A DNA stretch of 24,020 nt from an uncultured Opitutales bacterium (GCA_964589405.1 CAZPRW010000001.1:1-24020); one strand, 5' to 3'. Counted from the first letter of the stretch, positions 18,574-22,586 are shown. Notes: generated by a model from the sequence alone, not told the origin. Made by a program: numbers and translations.

Positions 18574-19746
18574 TCATTTAGAATCTTGTTGATTAAGCCC
18601 TTCCAAATCGGCTTTTATCATGTCGCGCAAGCGTTCTCCAGCACAACTATACATTGCCAAATTGAAAACACAATTCCCCCATATCCTAGAATTAAGGTAG
18701 GGACTAACGTACTCTCTGTCAACAGGTAAAGACAAATAAATCATCAAATGATCGTATTCTGACGGGCTCACTTTTTTTATCGTTTCTAATATTGCCGAAA
18801 CCTCGTCATGCATTCTTCGTATTTTGCCAGTTAGTGTATTAAGTTTTTCTTCTTTCGATCTCTGTTCTGCCTTACATGCTTCAAATTTTTCATTCAACTC
18901 TGCTAATTCATTATATTTACTTTTTAACTTTTCTTCGTCACTTTGAATCGTACTTTGCACAACTTTTAGTTCTTCATATTTTGATTTTATTTCTTTTGCC
19001 GTTTCTACACTTTGATTGCAAGCATTTAACGACAACTGCATTTTTTCAATTTCTTGCCTTTCTTGTTTTATAGAAGATTCTACACGACAAATTTCATTAG
19101 CTGTAGTCGTGCAAATATTAGAAACACTAGCGATTAAAAATGCACAAACATTAGTTAACATTCCTCGGTTGTTTAATGCATTTAACTGTGCTCGAAGTTC
19201 TTCTATCCTATTCTGCCTTGTTTCGATTTGGTTTTTTAGCGTTCTTATTAATCCCGGTACATCTTGCCCACAAATTTTCACTTGATTTTGCCATCTTTGA
19301 TTTTGTTCCTTTAATTTTTTTATATTCGAATCAAGATCTCTAATCTTTTGTTCTTTCTCTTCTTTTTCTCTTTTAAGTTTTTGAATTTCCTGATTTTTTT
19401 GACTTATTTCTTCCGATTTACTCTCACAATCAGATTGTAATTCCCTGACTCTACCCATCAGTGTTGTTTTTTGGCTATTAAGTTTATTGATCGCTTCTTC
19501 TTTCTCACGTATATCGTCAAAAAGCTTACGTGCCGAGTTTCTTGTTGTATGTATTGATTGCACATCTTGACCGACATTGTAACTACCTAACGGTCGAGAT
19601 TTACCGAAAGAACTTTCATTGCCAATTGACCCGCTTGAGCTATTCTCAATCCCAGTATAGCCATTAATGAAAGTATCATTATTTGCGTTGTTTTTACCTG
19701 CTTTATTAATAATTGAGTTCATGATCCCATCCTTTATTGTTTTCAA
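18574..19746 (-). CDS. Orphan coiled-coil protein C (390 aa); first 93 aa identical to protein B
   Basis: TTG start after AAGGTAGAAGGATA (ATG at 19722 is an alternative); S/N/G-rich N-terminus, long E/K/Q heptads and a central hydrophobic patch MLTNVCAFLIASVSNIC. Confidence 0.85.
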   Translation of the reverse strand: MKTIKDGIMNSIINKAGKNNANNDTFINGYTGIENSSSGSIGNESSFGKSRPLGSYNVGQDVQSIHTTRNSARKLFDDIREKEEAINKLNSQKTTLMGRVRELQSDCESKSEEISQKNQEIQKLKREKEEKEQKIRDLDSNIKKLKEQNQRWQNQVKICGQDVPGLIRTLKNQIETRQNRIEELRAQLNALNNRGMLTNVCAFLIASVSNICTTTANEICRVESSIKQERQEIEKMQLSLNACNQSVETAKEIKSKYEELKVVQSTIQSDEEKLKSKYNELAELNEKFEACKAEQRSKEEKLNTLTGKIRRMHDEVSAILETIKKVSPSEYDHLMIYLSLPVDREYVSPYLNSRIWGNCVFNLAMYSCAGERLRDMIKADLEGLNQQDSK

Positions 19747-19907
19747 TATCCTTCTACCTTATATATAAAATTTACCATTTAAACAAATCTTCTGGCAAAT
19801 CATCTACATGATTGACAGCTTTAGACCTAGACAAAACACTGTCTGTTTCGACTGGTATTCCTTCAAGACCTTGTACAGCCTCATGATATTCTTTTATTTC
19901 TCCTTCC
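19468..19907. repeat. 440-bp direct repeat, copy 1 (gene B C-terminus + spacer + gene C N-terminus)
   Basis: Identical to 20318-20757 (offset 850) except at 19851, 19861 and 19900. The first 383 bp are identical. Confidence 0.97.
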
Positions 19908-20596
19908 GCTTTACTTAACTGCGTGCGGAGACTTAAAAGTTCTCTTTGGGCACTTTCCAGACTTTTATCAACCATCTGTCGATCATTTTCTGCTCTTAAA
20001 AGTTCTTTTTGGGCACTTTTCAGCTTTTCCTCTGCTGTCAAAATCAGGTTGTCTTTACTTTCTATAATGTCCTTAAGCTTTTTGACGGAATCAGTCAAGG
20101 TCTGCATCAATTCCACGAATCCTTTATCAATCGCATCTTTTTCACCACTATCAACTCCTGTCAATGCCGTAAAACTTAAGCTGATTTTTTTAATCGCACT
20201 CAATTGTTTGCCAACAACTCCTTTGAGCTCATTATTTTCGTGTGTCACTTTATCTATATCACTTTCCTGAGTACTTATTTTATTTTTGAGTTCTTCAATG
20301 CCGTTCAGCAAAAATTCTTTTTGGCTATTAAGTTTATTGATCGCTTCTTCTTTCTCACGTATATCGTCAAAAAGCTTACGTGCCGAGTTTCTTGTTGTAT
20401 GTATTGATTGCACATCTTGACCGACATTGTAACTACCTAACGGTCGAGATTTACCGAAAGAACTTTCATTGCCAATTGACCCGCTTGAGCTATTCTCAAT
20501 CCCAGTATAGCCATTAATGAAAGTATCATTATTTGCGTTGTTTTTACCTGCTTTATTAATAATTGAGTTCATGATCCCATCCTTTATTGTTTTCAA
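19772..20596 (-). CDS. Orphan coiled-coil protein B (274 aa): N-terminus shared with C, C-terminus shared with A
   Basis: aa 1-93 identical to C; last 44 aa 41/44 identical to A; unique coiled-coil middle of about 137 aa. Confidence 0.85.
   Translation of the reverse strand: MKTIKDGIMNSIINKAGKNNANNDTFINGYTGIENSSSGSIGNESSFGKSRPLGSYNVGQDVQSIHTTRNSARKLFDDIREKEEAINKLNSQKEFLLNGIEELKNKISTQESDIDKVTHENNELKGVVGKQLSAIKKISLSFTALTGVDSGEKDAIDKGFVELMQTLTDSVKKLKDIIESKDNLILTAEEKLKSAQKELLRAENDRQMVDKSLESAQRELLSLRTQLSKAEGEIKEYHEAVQGLEGIPVETDSVLSRSKAVNHVDDLPEDLFKW
19932..20023. repeat. Internal 29-bp direct repeat with 63-bp (21-aa, three-heptad) spacing in gene B
   Basis: cttaaaagttctctttgggcactttccag (19932-19960) vs cttaaaagttctttttgggcacttttcag (19995-20023), 27/29 identical; encodes LESAQRELL / LKSAQKELL. 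Confidence 0.85.
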
Positions 20597-20757
20597 TATC
20601 CTTCTACCTTATATATAAAATTTACCATTTAAACAAATCTTCTGGCAAATCATCTACATGATTGACAGCTTTAGACCTAGACAAAACACTGTCTGTTTCG
20701 GCTGGTATTCTTTCAAGACCTTGTACAGCCTCATGATATTCTTTTATTTTTCCTTCC
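20318..20757. repeat. 440-bp direct repeat, copy 2 (gene A C-terminus + spacer + gene B N-terminus)
   Basis: See copy 1; differences at 20701, 20711 and 20750. Confidence 0.97.
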
Positions 20758-22586
20758 ATTTCAATCAACTTCTGGTCCTGCTCTTCATACTTCCTCTCCC
20801 ATTCATCGCGCTCCGCTTCAAGCCCATTAAGATCTCGTCTCAACCTAGCTATTTCATCTTCCAGACGCTTTATAGTCATTTGTTGCTCCTCGCACTTCTT
20901 CTTCAGCTCGTTATACTCGCTTCTCAACTCTTCCATTTTTTTCTTCATATCATCACTAACTGGTTGCATACCATAAACATCATTAACATAATTTACTGAA
21001 TTAACATTCATAGAGTCCACTCTATTGTCGCCGGTCGCCTTCTGTACAGCATTTTTGCTCAAATCCTCTATTTGTTTTTTTAAGCTTTCTATGTTTTTTT
21101 CTAATTCAGCGATTTTTTCATTACGTTCTTTTAGAGCCTCATTCAGTTTCAGCATTTCTTTTTCCAAACCAGAAATTTTGTCCTGAGCTTCTTCAGCTTG
21201 CGCTCTTCGTTCTTCTTCCTCCTTTTTCAGCTCCAATGCGCGCTGCCCATCTGCATGTTTCTGAACAAACATTTGAATAACATTCGACATGACATTACTG
21301 GCATCGGAAAACTCCATATCAGAAATTTCTTCTCTATCCAAAAGGGAGATGTTACTTATTTCTGATGACATATCAAGCTCTAAAACCTCTTCTGCGCGAT
21401 TTGTTGCTTCGACAAATAATTCTCTCAATAATGCTTCATGTTGCCGTAAAATTGCTTCCTCTGCAACAAATGATTCGCTCTCTCGTTTATGTTTATTTCT
21501 TAGATCAGCGATACGACATATGTATTCATCATAAGCTTGATGAACTGAATTCAATGTATTTATCCAGGATTGAAAAGGATCTTTTTCGCCATCATTAATC
21601 ACAACTGACAAATTTCCAGCAATCGACACGATGGATCTATCGTAGGCAACAATCGGCCCGTCAGAATCACCGCTATTAATGTAATTATTGAGAATGCTAT
21701 TTAACATGATGTTCATGCTCAATAAGTTTAGATAACAACTTACTGGCGCTTTTATGCTCGCCGTGCTATCGTTTTCACTTTCGCCGTCTTCTTTAACAAT
21801 ATTTACAGTCGGCGATATCATTGATTTGACATGGCGCATACATTGATCTCGCCAAATATCATCAGATGTTTTTTCTTTAACAGGGAAACTGCCACTTGCA
21901 TTGAAGGGAACGTTGTTTTTCCCAAAAACATTCTCCATGTCTTTTTTATATTTATCGTCATGAAAATGGATTCTGTTATGCTCGAGTTCAAAACTTACGC
22001 GCTGGCCATGGTTCATTTTTGATGGCAAAATTATTTCTGTGTCATTCAAATTTAACGTTCTTTTGCCTGCAAAATCTTCGATTTCACAATATTTGCCAAG
22101 CTCACTAACGACTTCTTCTATGCGCTCTTCAAGTTTTTCTGGACTCAACCGACCAGAAATTGTGATTTGCAGAAGATGTTTGCCATTGCAGCCTTGAATC
22201 ACTTTAAACTTGGCTGCTGGGTTACCATTTTTGTAGAAAAACACACCTTTGTTTTCATCAAATGTAATGTTGTTTTCAGCACCATTATTCCGTTCTATTG
22301 CGGTCTTCAGTTGATCGTTAACACTTTTATCTGGCACCTCTTCACACATCGCACGTGCCGTTTCAACGTTGTCATTCCAACGCTTCAATGCTGCATCATG
22401 TTTCTTTAACTCATTGGCATTGCCAATAGTTCTTGAATAAATAGATGATTCTTTAAGTTTTGAATCGGAAAAATCATTTATGATACTTTCCGCTTCTTTC
22501 CGACTTACAACAACAGACTTAAATCCAGCAAGCATCGGCTGCTGCTGAACGCGTTGATGTACTTTACTGTCGCCAACCCGATCCAT
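20622..22586 (-). CDS. Orphan protein A (about 654 aa): unrecognised N-terminal globular-looking region plus long C-terminal coiled coil
   Basis: Long open frame. Start set at ATG 22586 (MDRVGDSK) because the ORF-track extension to 22790 overlaps hinT antisense. C-terminal tail shared with B; internal module shared with 14150-14503. Confidence 0.82.
   Translation of the reverse strand: MDRVGDSKVHQRVQQQPMLAGFKSVVVSRKEAESIINDFSDSKLKESSIYSRTIGNANELKKHDAALKRWNDNVETARAMCEEVPDKSVNDQLKTAIERNNGAENNITFDENKGVFFYKNGNPAAKFKVIQGCNGKHLLQITISGRLSPEKLEERIEEVVSELGKYCEIEDFAGKRTLNLNDTEIILPSKMNHGQRVSFELEHNRIHFHDDKYKKDMENVFGKNNVPFNASGSFPVKEKTSDDIWRDQCMRHVKSMISPTVNIVKEDGESENDSTASIKAPVSCYLNLLSMNIMLNSILNNYINSGDSDGPIVAYDRSIVSIAGNLSVVINDGEKDPFQSWINTLNSVHQAYDEYICRIADLRNKHKRESESFVAEEAILRQHEALLRELFVEATNRAEEVLELDMSSEISNISLLDREEISDMEFSDASNVMSNVIQMFVQKHADGQRALELKKEEEERRAQAEEAQDKISGLEKEMLKLNEALKERNEKIAELEKNIESLKKQIEDLSKNAVQKATGDNRVDSMNVNSVNYVNDVYGMQPVSDDMKKKMEELRSEYNELKKKCEEQQMTIKRLEDEIARLRRDLNGLEAERDEWERKYEEQDQKLIEMEGKIKEYHEAVQGLERIPAETDSVLSRSKAVNHVDDLPEDLFKW

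Follow-up and report, generated by a model that had tools for sequence, protein, structure and literature searches.

Probable concerted evolution of a gene-junction segment by gene conversion in a coiled-coil gene trio of an uncultured Opitutales bacterium

Introduction

Why are three neighbouring genes with different central parts joined by almost the same piece of DNA, laid across both of the boundaries between them? The question is raised by a stretch of 24,020 nucleotides (nt) from an uncultured Opitutales bacterium (GCA_964589405.1 CAZPRW010000001.1:1-24020), in the following called the window. Its minus strand carries three consecutive open reading frames (ORFs), A, B and C, at 18574-22790. 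The 3′ end of A, the following spacer and the 5′ end of B recur, nearly letter by letter, as the 3′ end of B, the next spacer and the 5′ end of C. We refer to the C-terminal part common to A and B as the tail, to the N-terminal part common to B and C as the leader, and to the repeated segment of tail, spacer and leader as the cassette. An earlier note on this DNA had interpreted the array as an accordion, a recombinase-free plug-in system that varies coiled-coil middles under fixed ends. The analysis described here points to a different answer, namely that the junction segment probably undergoes concerted evolution by RecA-type gene conversion in an old trio of paralogues.

Results

A repeat that spans two gene boundaries

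A repeat search of the window detected an exact core of 300 nt with a copy spacing of 850 nt. Pairwise alignments extended this core to a direct repeat of 440 nt, whose copies at the A/B junction (R1) and at the B/C junction (R2) are identical at 437 of 440 positions (Table 1), as the earlier note had described. The proposed anatomy was borne out as well. Each copy comprises 136 nt of 3′ coding sequence (44 codons plus stop), the spacer and the 5′ coding sequence of the next gene, and B consists of leader, unique coil and tail. As the repeat runs uninterrupted through all three parts, the junction unit is inherited as one piece. Both edges are sharp. In a sliding comparison at an offset of 850 nt, identity dropped from at least 95% to background (approximately 38-45%) within one 60-nt step.

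No mismatch between R1 and R2 is more than 57 nt away from the upstream, tail-side edge, and each of the three is non-synonymous (E/K, G/R and V/A). Such a cluster had been read as the end of a conversion tract, which fits the data. The leaders of B and C display no difference over 279 nt, including 57 silent sites, and the spacer is likewise identical. In the genome to which the window belongs (0.80 Mb in 121 contigs, 85% complete), the repeat occurs exactly twice, and neither a third copy of the cassette nor one of either half was found there. A scan of metagenome contigs with B recovered no cassette or related sequence. A search for exact matches to the B protein led to no contig other than that of the window.

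The trio in related species

Two related genomes carry the same trio. In the sister species, a 239-kb contig shows full synteny, with CdsA, HIT, A′ (734 amino acids), B′ (262 amino acids), C′ (1281 amino acids), ACT, NUDIX, IspF and EIIA-DAC. A 7.4-kb contig of a third species harbors A″ (764 amino acids), B″ (244 amino acids) and C″, the latter in two pieces over an assembly gap. Exactly one B lies between A and C in all three genomes, which as a sample of three is weak, and in both relatives a repeat is located at the same two gene boundaries as in the window. The presence of one B and of the repeat in each of the three species indicates that this topology predates their split. The corresponding slot in a sister genus, beside NUDIX-ACT, is occupied by purine-metabolism genes and contains no array.

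The repeats of the relatives are more diverged. That of the sister species measures 489 nt with 92.4% identity and three gaps; its tails are 98% and its leaders 93% alike, while the spacer has diverged. It is a mosaic, in which a perfect run of 100 nt stands beside a stretch of approximately 92% identity. In the third species, 69 nt of the tail are 91% and 113 nt of the leader coil 71% identical. Between the window and the sister species, the cassette DNA showed no homology beyond an 18-nt ribosome-binding stretch (z 2.1). The ribosome-binding string AAAGGATGGGA is kept in the A′/B′ spacer of the sister species (L006:10206-10235) and is missing from its B′/C′ spacer (L006:11025-11052), while the flanking coding sequences are 93-98% alike. 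Since the two spacers differ between coding sides that are alike, the spacer appears not always to lie inside the homogenised tract.

Junction segments resemble each other within genomes and differ between them

Amino-acid comparison of the tails of A and B revealed 91, 82 and 60% identity within the genomes of the window, the sister species and the third species, respectively, and at most approximately 30% between genomes. The leaders of B and C are 100, 86 and 26% identical within these genomes, compared with at most 33% between them. The N-terminal domain of A, by comparison, shares 73% and 52% identity with its two orthologues, and between the two closest species the coil of A reaches 65% against 73% for the N-terminal domain. 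Between species, tails and leaders are therefore the most divergent parts and the body of A is conserved, which is the reverse of the fixed ends that the earlier note had assumed.

The ratio of non-synonymous to synonymous substitution rates (dN/dS) between the two copies of the sister species is approximately 0.7-0.8, which is near neutral. Together with the exclusively non-synonymous differences in the window, this value argues that purifying selection alone does not explain the likeness of the copies. Furthermore, the mosaic and the diverged spacer of the sister species suggest several conversion tracts. RecA, whose presence the earlier note had asked to be checked, is encoded in the genome of the window (427 bits, above cut-off). 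Gene conversion would be the simplest process to explain why the copies are alike, and we consider it probable that the junction segment evolves in concert by RecA-type conversion within an old paralogous trio. Conversion is the process that we infer; no event was observed.

The course of events could be as follows. A, B and C would be an old, genus-restricted trio of paralogous coiled-coil genes in an Opitutales symbiont with a reduced genome. Tail, spacer and leader, present twice at a distance of 850 nt, would serve as two conversion partners, and RecA-dependent conversion would repeatedly overwrite one junction copy with the other, homogenising the two ends of B with its two neighbours. 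The latest event in the genome of the window would have been very recent and would have covered nearly the whole segment, with three differences left at the upstream end, and the spacer and the silent sites free of any. At the sharp outer edges, usable homology between the neighbouring genes would come to an end, and the tracts with it.

Several points weigh against this interpretation. Conversion alone leaves the missing homology of tail, B and C to the sister species unexplained. The B proteins of the different species gave no BLAST match among each other and their orthology is not demonstrable, which, strictly speaking, leaves room for a repeated rebirth of B across species. The comparison rests on three genomes, so that the stability of the copy number is weakly sampled. 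Finally, the perfect identity in the interior of the repeat and the copy number of B could be products of the assembler, and the three differences clustered at the edge would also be the only ones that a short-read assembler could phase.

B as a paralogue of the N-terminal part of C

The middle of B was examined for its relationship to both neighbours. B is collinear with the N-terminal part of C (B 99-254 versus C 166-334, 28% identity, E 9e-4), and it aligns better with C, along the whole length, than with the coil of A. In the sister species, B′ and C′ could be aligned over all of B′ with 47% overall identity, including the homogenised leader (E 9e-76). No specific similarity was detected between the B middle and the A family (hhalign probability 0.3%). 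In its coil region, C shows a distant relationship to its counterparts in the other species (shuffle z 5.8 and 8.2). B thus appears to be a short and old paralogue that corresponds to the N-terminal third of C and is equipped with the C-terminal tail of A. The middles, which the earlier note had regarded as unrelated modules, thereby turn into members of an ordinary paralogue family. We also considered B as a chimera of the A coil and the C leader that arose from one 850-nt duplication. This candidate was rejected as unsupported, given the hhalign result and a shuffle z of approximately 3, a value that any pair of coils attains.

Loss of homology at the repeat edge

Comparison with the sister species at the DNA level revealed an abrupt break. 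Identity amounts to 83% in the upstream flank together with most of A, to 78% in the A coil and to 91.6% in the downstream flank (18399-14978). Nothing aligns in the block between them (Table 1). Array position 1829 marks, to within a few bases, the point where the alignment ends; the window repeat begins at position 1830, and the repeat of the sister species 19 nt past the break. Synonymous divergence (dS) of the flanking genes lies between 0.10 and 0.74, with approximately 0.3 for A. At such low dS even unconstrained sequence should align, and point mutation in place can therefore not account for the block. Moreover, an A remnant on contig C15 of the genome to which the window belongs has a tail significantly similar to the A tail of the window (z 4.2; reached by 1 of 1000 shuffles), while the tail of the sister species has no such similarity. 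From these two observations, the A tail seems to have its history in common with B and C rather than with the body of A. The block could stem from an overwriting of the A tail from B after B and C had been replaced or rearranged, from old paralogous tails of which each lineage fixed a different one, or from an import.

Within the low range of dS, neighbouring genes differ sevenfold (window 16371-18107 versus L006): 0.10 for ACT and for IspF, 0.74 for NUDIX, 0.70 for HIT and 0.33 for CdsA. This spread suggests a recombination mosaic between symbiont lineages.

The A remnant on contig C15 (C15:8293-8900; L013:1501-2109) is one of two decayed copies of the A coil; the other lies 6.5 kb from the array (Table 1). 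Each has a tail of its own, and neither carries the cassette. One of them contains stops and abuts the stop codon of EIIA-DAC, and the other is a 127-amino-acid ORF that follows frame-broken sequence. The sister genome holds only the one intact A.

The block, the dS mosaic and the C15-like tail could all be accommodated by a lateral or allelic replacement, in which tail, B and C came from a divergent lineage or from another paralogous locus and the identity of the repeat copies was imported with them. An import alone does not make two internal copies 99.3% alike, however, and conversion or duplication would still be needed. As no donor was found in protein collections or in the scanned metagenome contigs, we regard replacement as the full explanation as unlikely.

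A functional reading of the same block is about as unlikely. Tail, spacer and leader would form a co-inherited interface module: the three proteins would act as one set, for which a common tail is needed in A and B and a common leader in B and C. Possible versions are a head-to-tail assembly, with A and C as caps and B as the extending unit, or a common route to a chaperone or to secretion. If lineages exchanged such a module as one piece and it was afterwards copied to both junctions, a further step covered by the same low estimate, the end of homology to the sister species exactly at the repeat edge would be accounted for. Complex prediction for A 535-654 with C 1-130 yielded a score of 0.37, compared with 0.00 for the best control; the controls were unrelated natural proteins and not matched for coiled coils. 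In the calibration, 51 of 78 solved complexes attained the mark, as against 2 of 108 mismatched pairs; with scores of at most 0.60, however, just 5 of the 78 solved ones did so, and the 4 passing mismatches all fell in this range. The predicted contacts between A and C are generic heptad pairing of helices, in which the disordered tail and leader take no part, and the predicted complex lends the interface reading weak support.

Copy number, assembly and age of the array

Gene conversion between old paralogues has to be weighed against three further explanations of the repeat. In the accordion reading, homologous recombination adds, deletes or swaps coiled-coil middles while the expression and targeting ends stay constant, and the identity of the cassette is preserved for this purpose. 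The geometry permits a clean in-frame loss or duplication of the 850-nt B unit, RecA is present, and in the lpl cluster a 3′ end, spacer and 5′ end likewise form the unit of rearrangement in a tandem cluster, in mirror image (PMC2568036). Against it stand the lack of a third cassette or a spare middle in the genome or the scanned metagenome contigs, the single B in each of three species and the ends that differ most between species. Furthermore, the repeat has decayed to at most 92% in two species, and the identity that the model requires is not maintained there. The earlier note had named an invariant array without other copies as the finding that would speak against its plug-in function, and this is what was found, as far as three genomes show. 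The accordion is thus very unlikely.

The source assembly is fragmented and of the short-read type, and the 440-nt repeat forms a loop in the assembly graph. The repeat could consequently be one collapsed node and the B middle a loop, the true arrangement being A joined to C, several copies of B or more divergent interiors. The genome is spread over many contigs, of which the window is the longest with 24 kb, and each of the three differences is no further than a read length from one and the same edge, as expected from a collapse of interior variants that could not be phased. However, the independent assemblies of the two relatives, one of them the 239-kb contig, also show A-B-C, and their repeats are diverged (92% and 91%) and easy to assemble without ambiguity, which makes it unlikely that the topology of the trio is an assembly product. 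In addition, the flanks of A, B and C allow A-R-B-R-C as the only linear path, and elsewhere a 695-nt repeat of 99.7% identity was resolved by the assembly that contains the window. An assembly artefact is on these grounds highly improbable.

The 695-nt direct repeat is located on contig C13 (1240-1934 and 4771-5465), where it duplicates a 160-amino-acid gene resembling ribosomal protein S11. Its copies flank the genes for S4, RpoA and L17, and it represents either a real duplication or an assembly artefact of its own.

In the third explanation, B was made recently, and without conversion, by one young tandem duplication reaching from within A to within C. Breakpoints in two neighbouring genes do yield exactly a chimeric middle gene with repeats over both boundaries, and the repeat edges are sharp. 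However, the whole 850-nt unit should then be alike, while the 410 nt of the B middle are at background identity, and the trio already exists in two other species, which makes this explanation extremely improbable. Rather, the low identity of B to C beyond an identical leader and spacer argues for partial homogenisation, as expected from conversion between old paralogues.

Protein family and structure predictions

The proteins belong to no described family, as the earlier note had supposed. Searches against Pfam gave only sub-threshold coiled-coil matches for A, B, C and their relatives. B had no homologue among 5.8 billion proteins. The N-terminal domain of A, searched against 1.8 billion representatives, matched its own clade and, beyond it, yielded a single weak hit (E 8e-5). 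Public proteins include two homologues of A, namely A′ of the sister species with 58% and A″ of the third species with 44% identity. Among the genomes examined, A was present only in its own genus, in 2 of the 23 genomes of the family. The ESM Atlas contained no usable match for the N-terminal domain of A or for the large C-terminal domain of the sister-species C.

The latter domain accounts for a marked difference in length between the C proteins. C comprises 382-390 amino acids in the window and 1281 in the sister species (L006:11053-14898). The additional C-terminal part of approximately 900 amino acids belongs to no known family; it contains internal repeats of approximately 100-118 residues, in which the motif NGGNLK...LYQLPI recurs. 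It was not found anywhere in the 85% complete genome of the window.

A single-sequence AlphaFold2 (AF2) model of B (predicted local distance difference test score, pLDDT, 78) consists of a disordered region (residues 1-43, pLDDT below 50), two helices (50-137 and 145-237, mostly above 90) folded into a hairpin, and a disordered end (239-266). As the model is a monomer, it does not distinguish a hairpin from an extended dimer. The AF2 model of the A N-terminal domain, built from three sequences, was poor (pLDDT 49.8), and a structure search with it returned only generic helical bundles with Z of at most 9.3, which is in the range of noise that helical models give.

A type III secretion system and the possibility of secreted effectors

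The genome of the window encodes a non-flagellar type III secretion system. SctV (917 bits; cut-off 692), SctC (331; 238), SctN (656; 605), SctX (65.6; 30) and SctY (70; 70) were all detected. SctV exceeded the curated cut-off in 22 of 23 genomes of the Opitutales family, all with sizes of 0.7-1.0 Mb, and the system is a trait retained across the family. VirB4, as a marker of type IV secretion, was not found in the genome of the window.

In this setting A, B and C are plausible as secreted, host-directed effectors, with the disordered leader as a secretion or chaperone-binding signal. None of the three has a signal peptide. The leader is identical in B and C, is predicted to be disordered at its N-terminus and precedes different bodies, features that many proteins have. 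A point against this role is that no chaperone gene is located beside the trio. We consider an effector function a tentative proposal whose chance falls somewhat short of even.

Gene starts, transcription and other features

The coordinates of all features are compiled in Table 1. The start of A at ATG 22586, as assigned in the earlier note, is corroborated by its orthologues, which begin at the same place, and by a promoter-like site upstream. Of the junction dimensions given there, the tail of 44 codons plus stop was confirmed; the 93 N-terminal codons and the 25-nt spacer are to be revised. In both B (20572) and C (19722), an ATG is found nine codons further in, 7 nt behind AAAGGATGGGA, a string that also stands before the ATG called for B in the sister species. 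For these two reasons B and C probably start at the inner ATG, with a leader of 85 codons and a spacer of 49 nt.

No terminator-like site was detected between A, B and C, which therefore probably form one operon. Candidate internal promoters match the consensus at 9 of 12 positions in each cassette copy, but the number of such sites in the region did not exceed the shuffle expectation.

Table 1. Features of the window discussed in the text. All are on the minus strand.
Feature	Coordinates	Strand	Basis and remarks
Gene A, 654 amino acids: N-terminal domain of ~455 amino acids without known family, coiled coil, 44-amino-acid tail common with B	20622..22586	-	ORF; start backed by two orthologues and promoter-like site
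Gene B, 266 amino acids from ATG 20572: leader common with C, unique coil, tail common with A	19772..20572	-	ORF opens at TTG 20596, 274 amino acids (19772-20596)
Gene C, 382 amino acids from ATG 19722: same leader as B	18574..19722	-	ORF opens at TTG 19746, 390 amino acids (18574-19746)
Repeat copy R1, A/B junction: A tail (44 codons plus stop), spacer, B leader	20318..20757	-	Repeat search, alignments, sliding identity
Repeat copy R2, B/C junction: B tail, spacer, C leader	19468..19907	-	437/440 identical to R1
Unique B middle (136 codons), which makes up the far part of the predicted hairpin of helices	19908..20317	-	Alignment, sliding identity, AF2 model
Block without DNA homology to the sister species; flanks 78-92% identical	18400..20757	-	Left limit is the left edge of R1
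Promoter-like site 5′ of A (TTGACA, 16 nt, TAAACT; 10/12)	22601..22628	-	Consensus match only; site count not above shuffle expectation
Decayed paralogue of the A coiled-coil part, 6.5 kb away, with its own different tail	14150..14978	-	Similarity

A second tandem family with homogenised gene ends is found in the same genome. Contig C29 (72-9062) carries four tandem paralogues of 747, 675, 674 and 693 amino acids that are 45-69% identical and contain an HExxH motif. Their last ~100 nt and ~150 nt of the downstream spacer are 86-94% identical in DNA.

Discussion

The process proposed for the A-B-C array is already known, and the value of the case lies in the example and its setting. It would be a clean instance of concerted evolution, followed through three species, in which the homogenised unit spans a gene boundary. 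As the unit crosses this boundary, the ends of a gene would evolve with the neighbouring gene and not with its own body, which matters for orthology calls and for the dating of duplications. The trio itself is an undescribed, genus-specific set of coiled-coil proteins that can be flagged as candidate effectors in a family in which a type III secretion system is retained almost without exception. As the symbionts are uncultured, candidate host-interaction genes offer the practical entry to their biology. More genomes of the genus could resolve the sharp loss of homology at the repeat edge between close relatives.

The lpl cluster of Staphylococcus aureus is built from a comparable unit. There, the 3′ part of an ORF, the intergenic stretch and the 5′ part of the next ORF are co-inherited in an array of tandem paralogues, and the conserved gene centres are the site of recombination, while the variable junction units are shuffled among strains (PMC2568036). 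The two systems have in common the unit of 3′ end, spacer and next 5′ end, and tandem paralogues that are thought to act on the host. Co-inheritance of the lpl type is seen here in the tail of A, which changes between species together with B and C, with the break at the repeat edge. A conserved central recombination site was not found, the centres being divergent here; the junction unit is kept alike within the genome, a mirror image of lpl. The array also has only three genes, and no rearrangement among strains was seen.

Silent-cassette systems of antigenic variation, such as pilE/pilS of Neisseria, vlsE of Borrelia and msp2 of Anaplasma, resemble the array in conserved ends, variable middles and conversion of the RecA type. 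They differ in drawing on a reservoir of silent cassettes, whereas the genome of the window has only two copies of the ends.

Gene accordions are tandem amplifications that expand and collapse under selection. The K3L gene of poxviruses, reported by Elde et al. in 2012, is said to be such a case, and bacterial gene amplification has reportedly been treated by Andersson and Hughes in 2009. The likeness to the present array consists in direct repeats flanking a unit that recombination could duplicate or delete. Here, however, no variation in copy number was found, and the gene-sized chimeric unit is stable in three species.

With type III effectors the trio would share a modular N-terminus. Terminal reassortment of such effectors was reportedly described by Stavrinides, Ma and Guttman in 2006, and the SspH/SlrP/Sif group of Salmonella is said to have common N-terminal translocation modules (Miao and Miller, 2000). 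B and C likewise combine one predicted disordered N-terminal module with different bodies, in a genome that encodes a type III secretion system, although secretion of these proteins is a candidate function. In contrast to a signal fused to an unrelated gene, the sharing would here take place between adjacent paralogues, by conversion.

Gene conversion between duplicated bacterial genes is well described, for instance for the tuf genes, and concerted evolution of this kind in bacteria was reportedly reviewed by Santoyo and Romero (FEMS Microbiol Rev, 2005). The A-B-C array shares with the tuf type a higher identity within than between genomes, homogenised silent sites, mosaic tracts and RecA. 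It differs in that the tract would cross a gene boundary, uniting the end of one protein with the start of the next, and in that the proteins belong to an undescribed family.

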